From: Vicinamibacteria bacterium
Lineage (GTDB): Bacteria; Acidobacteriota; Vicinamibacteria; Marinacidobacterales; Marinacidobacteraceae
Direction of reading: 5' to 3'
NCBI GenBank assembly: GCA_963555995.3
Contig: OY821641.1
Coordinates: 1,376,001-1,440,000 of the forward strand
DNA: 64,000 nucleotides
Part shown: positions 1 to 5,858 of the stretch, piece by piece
How positions within the stretch are numbered: position 1 is the first letter of the stretch
Layout: each line of letters opens with the position of its first letter
Notes under the pieces: generated by a model
What the model was told of the DNA's origin: nothing
Seen by the model: the letters and a program-made list of their open reading frames with translations, nothing else
Databases searched by the model: none
Position numbers and translations under genes: made by a program

Positions 1-1156
1 CCGGCCCATCGAGCTGGTCGGCCACGGCCGGGTGAAGGACCGGGCGACCTCGGATCTCTGGGTCTGGGAGGCCCCGAACGGCCGCGACTACGCGATGACC
101 GGCACTCACAGCGCTGCCGGCCACGCCTACATCTGGGACGTGACCGATCCCGAGAACCTCGACATCGTGGACGTGGTGCGGGTGGACGCCCGCACCGTGA
201 ACGACGTCAAGATCTCGGAGGACGGCGCGACCGCGGTCATCTCCCGCGAAGGGGCGTCCAACCGGCGGAACGGGCTGGTGATCCTCGACGTCTCCGACCC
301 CTCGACCGGAGTCCGAAAGCTCGCCGAGTACGACGACCAGCTCACCGGCGGGGTCCACAACACCTTCATTCACGCCGGACACGTCTACGCGCTGTCGGGC
401 GGCCGGCGCTTCGACATCGTCAACATCGAAGATCCCTCGGTGCCCCACCGGGTGGGCAGCTTCGCGCTCGACAACCCGGCGCGCTCGATCCACGACGTGT
501 GGGTGGTGGACGGCATCGCCTATTCGGCGAACTGGAGCGACGGGGTGGCGGTGATTGATGTGGGCGGCGCGGGCAAGGGCGGGACGCCCCAGGACCCGAA
601 GCTCGTGGGTCAGTTCCCGTTCCCGACCGGCTGGAACCACGCCGTCTATCCCTACCGGAGCGTCTCGACCGGCAAGTTCTACATCTTCGCCGGGGACGAG
701 GCGGCCCGCACCGGCCGCTACAGCCCGCTCGCCGAGATCGGCACCGGAACGCCGGGCTACGACGACGAGCCCACCCGCTGGCGCGGCTGGATCCACATCC
801 TCGAGTGGGACGAGAACTTCGAGGCGCCGCCCCGGCTGGTCGGCCGCTACGAGGTCCCCGAGGCCGGCAGTCACAACATCTGGATCGAGGACGACGTGAT
901 GTACGTGGCGTTCTACAACGGGGGGCTGCGCGTGGTGGACGTCTCGGGCGAGCTGCTCGGGAATCTCTACCGGCAGGGCAGGGAGATCGCCCGTTTCCTG
1001 CCGCTCGATCCCGAGGGCTTCCTTCCCAATGCGCCGCAGGTGTGGGGCGCCCAGCCCCACAAGGGCGTCATCTACTTCTCGGACCGGAACTCGGGGCTCT
1101 GGGCGGTGCGCCTCGGCGACCTGCCGGAGGAGGCCACCACCGACGCCCAGCAGTAG
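1..1156 (+). CDS. LVIVD-repeat / choice-of-anchor B type beta-propeller protein (5'-truncated)
   Basis: Frame is open from the window start (RPIELVGHGRVKDR...). Repeated GLVILDVSDP / FDIVNIEDP / GVAVIDV / GLRVVDVS units with HN/HD motifs (GGVHNTF, SIHDVW, GSHNIW). Confidence 0.75.
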   Translation, partial: RPIELVGHGRVKDRATSDLWVWEAPNGRDYAMTGTHSAAGHAYIWDVTDPENLDIVDVVRVDARTVNDVKISEDGATAVISREGASNRRNGLVILDVSDPSTGVRKLAEYDDQLTGGVHNTFIHAGHVYALSGGRRFDIVNIEDPSVPHRVGSFALDNPARSIHDVWVVDGIAYSANWSDGVAVIDVGGAGKGGTPQDPKLVGQFPFPTGWNHAVYPYRSVSTGKFYIFAGDEAARTGRYSPLAEIGTGTPGYDDEPTRWRGWIHILEWDENFEAPPRLVGRYEVPEAGSHNIWIEDDVMYVAFYNGGLRVVDVSGELLGNLYRQGREIARFLPLDPEGFLPNAPQVWGAQPHKGVIYFSDRNSGLWAVRLGDLPEEATTDAQQ

Positions 1157-1171
1157 GGGAGCGCCGCCGGC

Positions 1172-1334
1172 TTGGAGCGCCGGCCTCCGGCCGGCGCCCG
1201 CTGCGCGGAGCGCAGTGGAACCACGCTCCTACCCGGCCCCACCACCGTAGCGACCTGGAACGCCGACCTCCGGTGGCGGCGAGGATGCCTCGGAGCGCCG
1301 GCGTCCGGCTGGCATGGACCGCCGAGAGGCGGTC
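1172..1334 (+). repeat. Cluster of three REP-like palindromic elements
   Basis: GGAGC-GCCGGCC-TCC-GGCCGGC (1174-1195) followed by hairpin CTGCGC-GGA-GCGCAG. Degenerate copies at ~1256-1277 and ~1292-1334, the latter with second hairpin GACCGCC-GAGA-GGCGGTC. Confidence 0.75.
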
Positions 1335-1478
1335 GAGACCGCGTGCGGTTGCGTACCCGGATAGCACCCCGGCTTCCTCTGGCGCCTTTCCGTCGGTTTC
1401 TTTGAGAACGCCAACCATCGGGCACCCTGGCGGTCCCGGTGGGGAAAATGTCGCTCCAATTACGTATCGTGTGCAAAA

Positions 1479-3989
1479 ATGGATTGTTCATCGGCAGCTA
1501 TGGACGGTCCGCAAGTTTCTGATTCACAAATAAGGAACGTATCTGGTCGTGAAGGGTCCCTGAAGGAACTATCCCCGTCCTTCCGGAACGCGGCTCCCCA
1601 CTTCCTGCCCCTCGCCGTCTTCCCGCTCCTGGTGAGCGCAGCGCTCTACGGCGGCTGGTGGATCCTGGGCCCCTTCGTCTTTCTCTTCGTGAACGGTTTT
1701 GACGGCGCGTCGGGAAGGGAGGAGCGCAACATGGATCCGGACCGGGACCCGGATGCAGGGTTGTTCTGGTACAAGCTGTCCGCCTGGACCTGGGCCGCGC
1801 TCTGGCCGGCGACGCTTGCCTTCGCGCTGTGGCAGATCTTCGCGCGCGGTCACCTCGCCACCTGGGAGGCGGTCCTCGTGGTGGCCGGTTTCGCGGGCAA
1901 CGCCACCTCCGTCTTCACTGTCGGACATGAATTCATCCATCGGCGCGCGGTCTGGGAGCGCCGCGTCGGGGAGTTCCTGCTGGCATCCGTCTCCTATCCG
2001 CTCTACGCCACCGAACACGTCTATATCCATCACTCGCTGGTGTGCACGCCGGGCGACCCCGAGTCCGTGGCGCGCGGGGTCAGCTTCTGGCGGTTCCTTG
2101 CGAAGAACCTGCCCCGGAGTGTCATGAGTTGCTGGCGCTTCGAGCGCCAGCGACTGGCTCGCCGCCGCCTTCCGGTATGGCACTACTCGAATGCCTTCTG
2201 GCGGTATGCGATCGAGACCGCGGCGTGGTACGTCCTCGCCTGGTGGCTGGGCGGCGTTTGGGGCATCGTTGTCGTCGCGGTCCTGGGCGGCTCCGTGGTC
2301 TTTCAGATCCGGGTTTCGGACTACGTTCAGCACTACGGACTGCGCCGCGTCCGGCTCCCCGGCGGCAGGTTCGAGCGCGTCCAGCGACACCACACCTGGA
2401 GCGCCGCTTACCGGCTCTCCAACTGGCTCTTCTACAACGGCCAGCGGCATCCGGACCACCACGCCGCCTCCAACCGGCGCTACCCGCTGCTGCAGCACTG
2501 CGGTGACGACCTCTCGCCGCAGCTTCCGGCGACGTACGGAGTCATGAACGGACTGGCTCTGTTTCCCGAGCGCTGGTTCCGCACGATGGATCCCCTCCTC
2601 GATGAGGCGCGAGCGCGGTTCTATCCCGAGATTCAGGACTGGAGCGCCTACGACAGTGCGGCGTTCGCCGCCCGCCCCGGAGCGCTCGACGCCATTGCGG
2701 AGGTATTGGGCTCCGCGCCGGGACTCGCCGAGTGGATGAACCGGGCTCCCGAATTACTGGACAGCCTCCGGACGCGGGAGTTCACGGATCTGGACCTGCC
2801 GCCGGGCTTCGGACCGGACCCGGAATACGAAAGGATCGCCCGCCGCGGCCTGGCCCGCCTCTACTGGACCCGCGAACTCGGCGTGCGGGAGATGGCGGAG
2901 CAACTCGCCGAAGCCCCGACGCAGGACGCCGGCGAGGCGGTGGACGTGGCCCGGGAGTGGGCGAACGGAAAAGTGTTCCAACTCGCGGTGCACACGATGC
3001 GCGGCAACCTGACTCCGAGTGAGGCGGCGACGGTCGCCGGACGGGTTGCCGAAGCCGCCTTGGCGGGCGTCCTGTCCGGGGTATGGCAGGACTTCCGCGA
3101 CCGGCGTTCGCCGGGACCGGGAAGCGGGATCTGCGCCGTCGTGTTCGGGGAGCTGGCGAGTGGGGAAGTGCTGCTCGGCGGCCGGCTCGAGGTGCAGTTC
3201 GTTTTCGAGGGCGGGTCCCCGGAGTACTACGAGTTGCTGTGCCGGCGGTTTCGAACGGCGCTCAGGTCGTTGTCGCGCGACAACCTGTGGCTCGCCCCGT
3301 TGGCGCGCGCGTGGGCGCCGCAACCGCTGCGCTCGCTGGAAGATTTTGTCGGGGAGCGCGGATCGGGTATTCCGGTGGCGGACCTGCGGCGACTCCTGGA
3401 GGCGCGCTGTGTCTTCGCGGAGGGGAAGTCGGGGCTGGCGGAGCGGTTCGAGGCGGCGCGGCGCGATCTCCTGAGTCGCCGCGCCGTTCGTAAGGCGCTC
3501 CTCATCAAACTCCCACCCGCCGCGTCCGAACCGGGTCTGCTGTTGTATCGGGAGATGTCCGGTGGCTGGGAGGATGTGAGGCGGGCCGCCCGGTTCCTGC
3601 AACTGCAACATTCCGCCGAGTTCCCGGATTTGCTGGCGTCGGACCGAGCCGGCGTCTTCCAGGCAGCGGGTGGGAGCGGCCTGGTTCCCGAGGCGGCCGC
3701 GGAGCGGCTGGTGGAAGCCACCACCCTGTGGGAAAACCTCGGCGGCATCCTCCAGGTGGTTGGGGAAGGGGTGTTCGTGGCGGGGGCGACCACCGACCAG
3801 GTCAAGGCCGTGGTAGCGCAGGCCGCCGGTGAGGACGACTTCGAGGCGCTGACCGGACGGATTCACCGGGTAGCGGCGCGGACCGCGCGCGACCTCCAGG
3901 CGATCGACCCCAGGTTGGGCGCGAAGCTGGCTTCGTCTGCCTCCGGATTGCACGGCGGGGCCGCTTCCGGGATCCTGGACCCGCCATAG
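1479..3989 (+). CDS. AlkB-family alkane 1-monooxygenase / membrane diiron desaturase-hydroxylase fused to a degenerate GlnE-like domain (start may be ATG 1500)
   Basis: N-terminal TM helices and His boxes HEFIH, EHVYIHH, DYVQHYG, QRHPDHHA. C-terminal ~440 aa resembles GlnE (LGSAPGLAEWMNRAPELLDSL; VVFGELASGEVLLGGRLEVQFVF; GGWEDVRRAARFLQLQH). Confidence 0.75.
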   Translation: MDCSSAAMDGPQVSDSQIRNVSGREGSLKELSPSFRNAAPHFLPLAVFPLLVSAALYGGWWILGPFVFLFVNGFDGASGREERNMDPDRDPDAGLFWYKLSAWTWAALWPATLAFALWQIFARGHLATWEAVLVVAGFAGNATSVFTVGHEFIHRRAVWERRVGEFLLASVSYPLYATEHVYIHHSLVCTPGDPESVARGVSFWRFLAKNLPRSVMSCWRFERQRLARRRLPVWHYSNAFWRYAIETAAWYVLAWWLGGVWGIVVVAVLGGSVVFQIRVSDYVQHYGLRRVRLPGGRFERVQRHHTWSAAYRLSNWLFYNGQRHPDHHAASNRRYPLLQHCGDDLSPQLPATYGVMNGLALFPERWFRTMDPLLDEARARFYPEIQDWSAYDSAAFAARPGALDAIAEVLGSAPGLAEWMNRAPELLDSLRTREFTDLDLPPGFGPDPEYERIARRGLARLYWTRELGVREMAEQLAEAPTQDAGEAVDVAREWANGKVFQLAVHTMRGNLTPSEAATVAGRVAEAALAGVLSGVWQDFRDRRSPGPGSGICAVVFGELASGEVLLGGRLEVQFVFEGGSPEYYELLCRRFRTALRSLSRDNLWLAPLARAWAPQPLRSLEDFVGERGSGIPVADLRRLLEARCVFAEGKSGLAERFEAARRDLLSRRAVRKALLIKLPPAASEPGLLLYREMSGGWEDVRRAARFLQLQHSAEFPDLLASDRAGVFQAAGGSGLVPEAAAERLVEATTLWENLGGILQVVGEGVFVAGATTDQVKAVVAQAAGEDDFEALTGRIHRVAARTARDLQAIDPRLGAKLASSASGLHGGAASGILDPP

Positions 3990-4023
3990 CGCCATCCTTC
4001 CTTCGCAATCGCCGAAGCGGCTG

Positions 4024-4054
4024 CACGCGGCGTTCGGCGGGCGATGCATCCCGG
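4024..4054. repeat. 31-bp dispersed repeat, copy 1
   Basis: CACGCGGCGTTCGGCGGGCGATGCATCCCGG, identical to 6904-6934. Confidence 0.85.
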
Positions 4055-4082
4055 CGGGGCGGGCGCAAGGAAGGACGAACTC

Positions 4083-5288
4083 CTACAACTCCGCGTGTTG
4101 TGGGGTCGCGTCGGGGCCGAGGAAGGCCTCCACATACTTGGTGCCGGTGCCGGTGTTGAAGAGGACCACGGTGTCGTCTTCCGAAACGTCGCCCGCTTTG
4201 CGGAGCCGGCGCAGCGCGCTGAGACAGGCGCCGCCTTCGGGGGCGGCGAAGATGCCCTCGGCGGCGCCGATCCGGCGGGCGTCCCGCATGAGCTCCTCGT
4301 CGCTGACCGCGAGCGCGGAGCCACCGCTCGTCCGGACGGCCGCCAGGATGAGGAAGTCGCCGAGCGCCTTGGGGACCCGAAGTCCGGACGCGACGGTGTG
4401 GGCGTTCTCCCACATCGTGGACGCCTCCGTTCCGTCCTCGAACGCCTTCGGGATGGGGGCGCAGCCCTCGGCCTGCACCGCGATCATGCGGGGCCGCTCC
4501 GAACCGATCCAGCCGAGCCGCTCCATCTCGTCGAACGCCTTCCACATTCCGATGAGGCCGGTGCCGCCGCCGGTCGGGTAGAGGATCACGTCGGGCAGGC
4601 GTCCGAGTTGTTCGAACACCTCGTAGCCCATCGTCTTCTTGCCCTCGATGCGATAGGGCTCCTTCAGGGTGGCCACGTCGAACAGTCCCCGTCCCGGAGC
4701 CAGGTCGGCGATCAGCCGGCCCGCGTCGGAGATCAGGCCGTCAATGGGGTGGATCTCGGCGCCGTACACCGAAGCCTCGATCCGGTTCACCTCGGGACAG
4801 TCGCGGGGCACCGCGACGACGCACTGGATCCCGGCGCGGGCGGCGTAGGCCGCGGCCGCGCCCCCGGCGTTCCCCGCGGAGGGGAGCGCGATCCCTCGCG
4901 CGCCGAACTGGTAGGCGGCTGAAACGGCCATGCAGAGGCCCCGGTCCTTGAAGCTGCCGGTGGGATTCGTTCCTTCGTGCTTGATGAAGAGTTCCCGGAT
5001 CCCGAGTTCGGCCCCGAGGCTGGGGGCCGGGAGGAGCGGAGTCCCGCCTTCGCCCAGTTTCAGACAGTGTCGTTCTGCCTGGATCGGCAGGACCTCGTGG
5101 TAGCGCCAGAGGTCGAAGGGCCGGTCCCTGATGGCTGCGGGAGTGAATGTCGGGGCCGCCGCTTCGAGGTCGTACCGGGCCAGCAGGGGGTGTTTCTCGT
5201 TCGAGAGGTTCTGGGACGCGAAGGCGTCGTGGCGGTGCCCGGTCTTCGAGCACTCGAGGTGGGTGAGGTAGGAATACCGCGTGGCCAC
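4083..5288 (-). CDS. thrC: Threonine synthase (PLP fold-type II)
   Basis: KHEGTNPTGSFKDRG PLP-lysine motif, PSAGNAG, EPYRIEGKKTM, YPTGGGTG. Confidence 0.85.
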   Translation of the reverse strand: MATRYSYLTHLECSKTGHRHDAFASQNLSNEKHPLLARYDLEAAAPTFTPAAIRDRPFDLWRYHEVLPIQAERHCLKLGEGGTPLLPAPSLGAELGIRELFIKHEGTNPTGSFKDRGLCMAVSAAYQFGARGIALPSAGNAGGAAAAYAARAGIQCVVAVPRDCPEVNRIEASVYGAEIHPIDGLISDAGRLIADLAPGRGLFDVATLKEPYRIEGKKTMGYEVFEQLGRLPDVILYPTGGGTGLIGMWKAFDEMERLGWIGSERPRMIAVQAEGCAPIPKAFEDGTEASTMWENAHTVASGLRVPKALGDFLILAAVRTSGGSALAVSDEELMRDARRIGAAEGIFAAPEGGACLSALRRLRKAGDVSEDDTVVLFNTGTGTKYVEAFLGPDATPQHAEL

Positions 5289-5301: not shown

Positions 5302-5858
5302 CTAGACCGAGAGGATGCTGGCTTCCTTGCGGGACGCGATCTCGACGACCCGCTTCACGTGCGCGTCGGTCGCCTTCTGCACTTCCGCCTCGAGGTCGTG
5401 CTCGAGGTCCTCCGAAAGCTCCTTGCTCTTGACCAGCTTCTTGGCGCGCTGGTTGGCGTCGCGCCGCACCTGCCGGAGCGCGTTCTTGTGCTCCTCGGCC
5501 ATCCGGTTGATGCTCTTCGCGAGTTGCTTCCGCCGTTCCTGGCTGAGCGGCGGGATCGGAATCCGGAGCATCGTCCCGTCCGAGGCGGGTTCAGGTCGAG
5601 ATCGGCGGCCCGGATCGCCCGGTCGATCGCCGGCAGCAGGTTCCGCTCCCAGGGCTGGACGGTGATGGTGCTGGCGTCGGGGGTCTTCAGGGTGGCGACC
5701 TGGTTCAGCGGCATCAGCTGTCCGTAGTAGTCCACCCGGACCGAGTCCAGCAGGGCCACCGACGCCCGGCCGGTGCGCACGGAAGCCAGTTCGTGCTCGA
5801 ACACCTCGACGGTTTTGTCCATCCGGCGGTTCAGGTCGTCCAGAATCTGGTGATTCAT
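5302..5858 (-). CDS. frr: Ribosome recycling factor, split by an apparent 1-nt frameshift at ~5587
   Basis: N-half (ELASVRTGRAS...VQPWE...DLDLNP) in ORF 5355..5858. C-half (SDGTMLRIPIPPLSQERRKQL...RQVRRDAN) in ORF 5302..6315. Canonical position after pyrH. Confidence 0.9.

Follow-up and report, generated by a model that had tools for sequence, protein, structure and literature searches.

Why should a membrane oxygenase of the alkane monooxygenase kind carry half of the adenylyltransferase GlnE at its C-terminus? The question is raised by a gene at positions 1479 to 3989 (+ strand) of a 64,000-nucleotide stretch from a Vicinamibacteria bacterium (assembly GCA_963555995.3, contig OY821641.1, positions 1,376,001 to 1,440,000), which we call the window. 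A first-pass annotation, made from the letters alone, had read the gene as an AlkB-type monooxygenase joined to a catalytically dead GlnE-like domain, and had suggested that the domain links hydrocarbon oxidation to nitrogen status. Here we propose a different role. The protein would be a di-iron membrane enzyme of the AlkB fold, here in a stand-alone copy, whose relatives mostly sit in clusters for srp thiazoline peptides, the sponge-derived proteusins among the peptides that are made by ribosomes and modified after translation (RiPPs). It would work in trans on the srp peptide of a cluster 400 kb away in the host genome, where it would oxidise the activated (allylic) methyl of a prenyl group predicted to be put on that peptide. 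The reaction would resemble that of XylM, with an activated carbon oxidised and a ferredoxin-type protein as electron donor, and the GlnE-derived half would act through an insert-bearing helical region as a non-catalytic docking or regulatory module. Taken as one claim, that a dead GlnE half rides on an enzyme that acts on an srp peptide or its prenyl substrate and oxidises the lipid part, we favour this by a small measure. The gene and its oxygenase half hold the following features, where counts out of 120 refer to the window protein and 119 full-length homologues, the best 120 of 783 matches:

1479 to 3989, + strand: open reading frame of the fusion, stop-free, 836 amino acids; the true start is possibly at 1500
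1566 to 2630, + strand: AlkB-fold membrane di-iron domain, residues 30-384 (PF00487 and 8f6t matches; model)
1926 to 1940, + strand: first His box, H150 and H154, 120/120
2013 to 2033, + strand: second His box, H180, H184 and H185, 120/120
2319 to 2339, + strand: third His box, H285, with Q284 (2328-2330) at the position of the iron-ligand Glu of AlkB (E271/E281 of FtAlkB)
2439 to 2465, + strand: G321 (equivalent to pocket residue L318 of FtAlkB) and the fourth His box, H324, H327 and H328

The open reading frame listing and the translation bear out a single uninterrupted frame, and place the four His boxes and the GELAS.EV...GRLE stretch of the C-half exactly where the first-pass annotation had put them. 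The database product (P0002) has 829 residues and starts 7 residues downstream of the 836-residue frame; the first 25 codons are under no constraint, with a predicted local distance difference test score (pLDDT) below 50 in the model and frame-shifting indels in sequencing run X6. The protein search scored 7,995 candidates, and the 119 full-length homologues among its best 120 are 52-85% identical and named Acidobacteriota, Gammaproteobacteria, Proteobacteria or Ca. Palauibacter. Contigs of public runs also span the gene or its junction, and the fusion is no chimera: in run X2, possibly from the same study as the source, one 2,844-base contig covers 1210-4053 with 6 differences, and in X6, from another study, a contig crosses the AlkB/GlnE junction (2564-3077). 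A sponge-metagenome run contains close relatives. Among 11 orthologues of a second fusion copy in the host (54 of 55 pairs; the set excludes L031 and the window copy), the ratio of nonsynonymous to synonymous substitution is 0.13 in the AlkB half and 0.22-0.29 in the module, so that the fusion is kept by purifying selection. An AlphaFold model built from 119 sequences reached a pLDDT of 86.8 and a pTM of 0.85. A literature search for AlkB joined to GlnE or to a nucleotidyltransferase returned no match, with most subscription papers, including Nguyen et al. 2021, outside its coverage; the architecture is real and conserved, and apparently undescribed within the literature searched, though Nguyen et al. 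2021 might annotate the gene already. The name SrpB was absent from the srp papers listed.

The N-terminal half is AlkB-type, as first noted (PF00487, E 2e-23; AlkB 8f6t, E 7.6e-44), and its model superposes on 8f6t with Z 38.1 and a root-mean-square deviation (rmsd) of 2.8 over 355 aligned residues. Eight iron-binding histidines are present in 120/120 sequences and H327 in 119/120, so nine histidines in four motifs are kept. It thus shares fold, histidines and a basic donor-docking patch with FtAlkB-AlkG of Fontimonas thermophila (8f6t/8sbb), and differs in that Gly takes the place of pocket Leu318 in this copy (most of the family has Met), that a GlnE relic takes the C-terminus, that rubredoxin is neither fused, adjacent nor found in the genome, and that the tenth ligand, a Glu, is Gln in all 120 close homologues. 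In FtAlkB this Glu271 is a ligand of Fe2 and lies 3.2 A from the alkane methyl, according to the part of the report seen (PMC10113152); the part seen of a second report numbers it E281 (PMC10110569). Unfused Rhodobacterales AlkB proteins and some deeper members of the fusion family retain the Glu, and this Glu/Gln contrast offers a natural test of the tenth ligand of AlkB. Judged by its residues, our half is predicted to work as an AlkB-superfamily oxygenase, yet it lacks the Glu ligand that helps to define AlkB.

XylM attacks activated benzylic methyls. The one XylM that we examined, from plasmid pWW53 of Pseudomonas putida, likewise has Gln in its third His box, and the gene that follows encodes a 2Fe-2S protein, so that its partner is not a rubredoxin. 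Unlike our protein, XylM has no fusion; our gene lacks a XylA-like neighbour, and identity to XylM is 24%. Five of the six donor-docking Arg positions of FtAlkB are mostly Arg or Lys in the fusion family, and a soluble electron carrier therefore likely still docks. The 93%-complete host genome yields no rubredoxin match (0 for PF00301), and the gene's neighbours, an LVIVD-repeat gene and a pyridoxal-phosphate (PLP) enzyme gene, agree with the earlier remark that rubredoxin is not adjacent; six Fer2 matches occur in the genome, none tied to the fusion gene. Given an srp substrate, we lean towards chemistry of the XylM kind, in which an activated carbon is oxidised and a ferredoxin-type protein donates the electrons. 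Two coupled types of substrate pocket occur: SMK..N/M, seen in 73 of the 113 sequences that the pattern matched, and Q[ILMV]R..D/small. The host's second copy has the former, and the window copy has QIR..D/G, a form of the latter common to its 8-member clade.

The genomic company of the relatives points to the substrate. Published accounts, as far as the passages seen go, describe three thiazolines made by SrpC and bromination by SrpI, both on an LCCCW core (PMC10858898, PMC10286304, PMC9426513), in clusters that occur in many sponge-symbiont phyla, are highly transcribed and have a role called elusive (bioRxiv 2023.06.09.544420). Core srp genes are present in 27 of the 38 fusion loci that we recovered (YcaO in 25, a prenyltransferase-fold gene in 23), and in 22 of the 26 loci of at least 13 kb; the set includes near-duplicates and one locus, L066, cut before its AlkB half. 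None of the 10 loci of donor-type GlnEs, described below, has them. The order NHLP-cyclase-like gene, fusion, YcaO recurs in 8 loci, which places homologues of our gene directly upstream of the SrpC YcaO. The gene before YcaO (L044:13303-14604, the same as G000 C1 1781302-1782603) joins an NHLP leader-like domain to a domain that weakly matches class II terpene cyclases (E 0.0018) in LCCCW-type clusters. The gene after it (L044:16933-18042) is modelled as an ABBA prenyltransferase fold (pLDDT 88.6); the Foldseek matches listed are all prenyltransferases (best E 2e-5), and it is placed by fold search only, the SrpD-like alignment giving 0 matches by sequence against PDB. In 4 loci a gene for a polyprenyl synthase comes after the fusion, and in 8 an ordinary pump gene of the resistance-nodulation-division (RND) family lies nearby. 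From a prenyltransferase-fold gene, a cyclase-like gene and a Gln-type oxygenase together one would predict a thiazoline peptide that is both lipidated and oxidised and could be looked for by mass.

The host has an srp cluster of its own (C1, about 1.776-1.788 Mb) with exporters, a cyclase-like gene and YcaO 7 bases apart, a prenyltransferase-fold gene, an ITEEQL/LCCCW precursor and a halogenase. It resembles the published clusters in its precursor, YcaO, halogenase and NHLP exporters, and differs from them in its distance from the fusion genes, 400 kb for the window copy and 565 kb for the paralogue; the published passages describe SrpC, SrpE and SrpI only. Among 41 relatives, which as kin are not independent, 11 carry a full fusion and all of these an srp YcaO (one match being partial), 4 have YcaO without a full fusion and 26 have neither. 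Given the srp core genes in 27 of the 38 loci, we think it reasonably likely that the enzyme acts on the srp peptide or on the prenyl part of it; and because the host LCCCW cluster has no fusion, and all 11 full-fusion relatives have the YcaO, the enzyme would act in trans. As further observations on these clusters, precursor cores vary (LCCCW, LCCCL, LCCCG, LSCCL, MCCCGI, RCCCCW), three loci (L065, L072, L073) have two copies of the prenyltransferase-fold gene, and an ISL3 transposase interrupts the AlkB half of a fusion within one cluster (L012:3133-7575).

Several observations weigh against the proposal that the window copy tailors an srp peptide, and they also feed the strongest alternative. 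Our copy stands alone, outside the srp cluster, between two genes:

1 to 1156, + strand: upstream neighbour, an LVIVD-repeat protein (outside the element)
4083 to 5288, - strand: downstream neighbour, a PLP enzyme, convergent, which marks the insertion site and which we take to be threonine-synthase-like

It is an insertion here: in 14 of 14 relatives no fusion lies within 1.5 kb of the PLP gene, and the site can be seen empty in G001. The other copy, 90% identical to a protein named Acidobacteriota, which by itself makes an acidobacterial host likely, sits between a CDP-alcohol (cytidine diphosphate-alcohol) transferase and a glycosyltransferase, as it does in 7 relatives. At that locus an entire second cluster adjoins the glycosyltransferase in G009, a cluster in which just a remnant of the fusion is left occurs in G001, and G000 and the 7 relatives have the fusion alone. 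Since the pocket type of the LCCCW clusters matches the paralogue (SMK..N/M) and not the window copy, the paralogue could be the one that serves the host cluster. Four of the 15 YcaO-bearing relatives lack a full fusion, and srp YcaO was not found in 2 of 5 other fusion-bearing genomes, whose completeness is not given. On the chemistry, the Gln shared with XylM is probably convergent, because the AlkB domain is only 24% identical to XylM and 34-37% identical to Rhodobacterales AlkB. Deeper fusion members retain the Glu. A prenylated or oxidised srp product did not appear in the srp literature examined, as far as the passages seen extend. Finally, the presence of the same relic on RND pumps speaks against a module specific to the oxygenase.

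Perhaps the window copy no longer belongs to the srp pathway, and what it oxidises or desaturates is a lipid or terpenoid in free form, made by the host or by the bacterium itself, with the module as a carried-along structural part. The stand-alone insertion with no srp neighbour, the second copy already in the host, the distinct pocket common to the 8-member clade and the two genomes in which YcaO was not found all fit this, as does the deep-branching fusion L018, which lies among housekeeping genes. Yet some srp clusters contain a fusion with this pocket type (L063, L065, L072, L073), the genome of L018 also has an srp YcaO, and YcaO accompanies the fusion in 11/11 relatives; we therefore regard a free-lipid enzyme as unlikely, though it is the alternative that we take most seriously. 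In one further respect the two copies are entangled: a tree of modules joins the window copy (the clade of P0001) with the paralogue's type (P0018/P0023; 100/94), and a quick tree of AlkB domains separates them. A module swap between paralogues is a possible explanation of these trees.

Whatever the oxygenase acts on, the srp reading gives its other half no catalytic part. That half holds these features:

2673 to 3911, + strand: module derived from GlnE, residues 399-811 (the last part of the central region, then the adenylyl-transfer half)
2784 to 2864, + strand: insert of about 27 residues (436-462), not in canonical GlnE, common to RND-fused modules and donor GlnEs
3147 to 3191, + strand: decayed nucleotidyltransferase loop; E. 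coli K690, G692, S700, D701 and D703 are here E558, A560, G568, R569 and E571
3291 to 3317, + strand: where the VDxRLRP motif has been lost; L608 stands at the position of E. coli D752

Descent from GlnE, as originally claimed, is upheld by PRK14108 (E 2.8e-14) and by an HHalign comparison of 16 modules with residues 546-911 of E. coli GlnE (97.8%); the PF03710 match has an E of only 0.002, below the cut-off. The model fits both GlnE halves (1v4a, Z 29.6, rmsd 3.4, 382 aligned; 3k7d, Z 26.9, rmsd 3.2, 351 aligned), and since structure alone cannot separate them it is sequence that assigns the module to the adenylyl-transfer half. It matches just residues 569-1000 of the full-length GlnE P0137, so the architecture of a removing and a transferring half is absent. 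In ESM Atlas, residues 385-545 retrieved GlnE clusters only (0.82-0.83), which we note as a lead. The module therefore resembles E. coli GlnE (3k7d/1v4a) in the fold and sequence of its transfer half, and differs from it in being one half only, in the insert and in the loss of catalytic motifs. DxRxRP is found in 0/120 sequences, the loop Lys at the K690 position in 1/120, and the metal-binding pair is RxE here; both catalytic Asp are present in 33/33 canonical GlnEs, in which we take D752 to be the third metal ligand. The GlnE half is almost certainly dead as an enzyme, as the first-pass annotation had held.

The dead module is not confined to oxygenases. A profile search of 1.84 billion representatives (best 150 matches listed, 39 of them Pfam-scanned) also found it at the C-terminus of AcrB-type RND permeases, and a follow-up search gave 89 RND-fusion clusters from 95 matches, 86 of them longer than 1,400 residues and gammaproteobacterial where named. 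The RND-fusion proteins (P0162, P0174, P0293-P0380) have about 1,520 residues and keep the transmembrane Asp-Asp motif. In both protein types the C-terminus is presumably cytoplasmic. Module identity between an AlkB fusion (P0001) and an RND fusion (P0162) is 32%. The insert is missing from the 33 canonical GlnEs and present in AlkB-fused modules, RND-fused modules and full-length GlnEs with catalytic motifs; relative to canonical GlnE, it was inherited from a subclade of intact GlnEs (P0137, P0158, P0163, L092-L099). In a 59-row module tree rooted on gammaproteobacterial GlnE, the modules on AlkB proteins and those on RND pumps fall into a single clade (100/100) that lies inside the insert-bearing GlnEs (100/100), and as a control for long branches this clade stays when the insert region and the long row P0179 are removed (SH-like approximate likelihood ratio test 99). 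The metagenome scan, which gave 30 AlkB-type and 10 GlnE loci, contained no RND-fusion locus. Scans of 400 gammaproteobacterial genomes (1 not scored) gave 3 matches, all AlkB fusions and none RND, and the module was not found at E 1e-40 in 300 other genomes of the host phylum.

Where might such a module do its work? Fifty-three positions reach a conservation of at least 85% in the AlkB-fused modules and in the RND-fused ones alike, and 28 of them fall in residues 399-516. A natural short form (L018:5935-7836 and P0171; 626-634 residues, Glu ligand kept) retains only about the first half of the module. For these reasons the insert region, with residues 399-516 as the candidate stretch, is quite probably the working surface. 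Blocking of the AlkB donor patch by the acidic insert was considered and rejected as its main role, the insert being equally conserved on RND pumps and on intact GlnEs. We infer one enzyme death followed by two grafts, with the working surface around the insert. Because the same relic also sits on a large family of RND pumps, the module is likely a reusable docking or sensing part, in keeping with the earlier suggestion of a non-catalytic regulatory or docking module. A dead GlnE half kept by selection on an oxygenase and on a pump family would be a binding module not described so far, for which residues 399-516 are mapped as the candidate surface. A fuller scheme, which we offer tentatively and would not expect to hold in every part, is that a GlnE subclade gained a new binding surface with the insert, that its transfer half died once and was then grafted, as a portable cytoplasmic part, onto two or more unrelated membrane machines of sponge symbionts, among them a XylM-like RiPP prenyl oxygenase and RND pumps, and that a common ligand or partner couples the tailoring and export of the srp peptide, the cryptic sponge peptide with the widest expression, or one metabolic signal governs both. 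If this portable module is real, it would be a new class of pseudo-enzyme domain, and the protein in the window would be the first AlkB-type RiPP tailoring enzyme.

The insert-bearing GlnEs that serve as donors in this picture merit a few observations of their own. In L094-L097 the transfer half of the full-length protein has Pro at the first Asp (D701) and the removing half keeps its motifs; by their motifs, these GlnEs are possibly one-way, deadenylylating enzymes. In L092, L099 and L100 the gene lies upstream of genes for a STAS protein, a SpoIIE-type response regulator and an anti-sigma kinase.

The metabolic signal might be nitrogen, with the module sensing glutamine, glutamine synthetase (GS) or PII and gating the oxygenase and likewise the RND pumps. 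This would explain the reuse of one part on two unrelated membrane proteins. In the host glnB adjoins glnA and GS keeps the adenylylation-type Tyr motif, and an ammonium transporter directly follows one donor-type glnE (L100). For the GlnE of H. seropedicae, the part of the source seen places glutamine sensing in the C-terminal half, the part kept here, and reports that the effect of PII-UMP needed the N-terminal half and that glutamine alone bound the half poorly, MgATP being involved (bioRxiv 10.64898/2026.09.02.748916). The N-terminal half is absent from our protein, which makes PII docking unlikely, and the ATP/Mg site is decayed. Canonical GlnE and GlnD were not found in the 93%-complete host genome, where the sole GlnE- and GlnD-family matches are the paralogous fusion; conservation lies on the new insert and not on the GlnE cleft; and the neighbours identified around AlkB fusions include RiPP genes and no nitrogen genes. 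The original idea of hydrocarbon oxidation tied to nitrogen status through PII or glutamine synthetase is thus not supported, and a nitrogen sensor of any kind is improbable, somewhat more so than a free-lipid enzyme. It concerns the module only, and is compatible with an srp substrate.

Could the module instead still transfer nucleotides, to a peptide, an oxidised lipid or a partner protein? Across the 120 sequences the metal-binding pair is ExD in 72, DxD in 12 and something else in 36, so the loss of DxD that was first reported holds for the window copy, with its RxE, and does not hold as a rule for the family. The ExD or DxD in 84/120 homologues and a fold predicted to be whole could suit an active enzyme. 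Against this, the window copy has RxE, the third acidic motif is lost in 120/120 and the loop Lys and Gly-Gly are replaced. The catalytic loop also differs between the families, with Pro at D701 in 76 of 87 RND modules, and within the window copy's clade the site is free to vary, identity being 75-93% over residues 399-520 and 55-73% over 666-810. In MntA, a related adenylyltransferase, as described in the part of the report seen, three Asp hold two Mg ions, and a variant with ExE for DxD still bound but no longer transferred (PMC7641770). That the module is a nucleotidyltransferase acting on some new acceptor is accordingly very improbable, and an assembly chimera or neutral read-through, for which only the weak Pfam score of the C-half would speak, is ruled out for practical purposes by the 119 full-length homologues, the spanning contigs and purifying selection. 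Birth of the gene by fusion of an adjacent alkB and glnE was also rejected as a candidate, since the unfused Rhodobacterales alkB loci examined (L019, L021, L024) have no glnE neighbour.

The surroundings of the gene add some minor observations. At 5355-5858 the frame of ribosome recycling factor seems shifted near 5590, with its C-terminal part in another frame, possibly an assembly error. A sigma-70-like promoter was not found at 1100-4150. Palindromic intergenic repeats flank the gene at 1160-1225 and 4024-4059, with 313 and 55 BLAST pieces across the genome when self-matches are counted; presumably they resemble repetitive extragenic palindromic elements.

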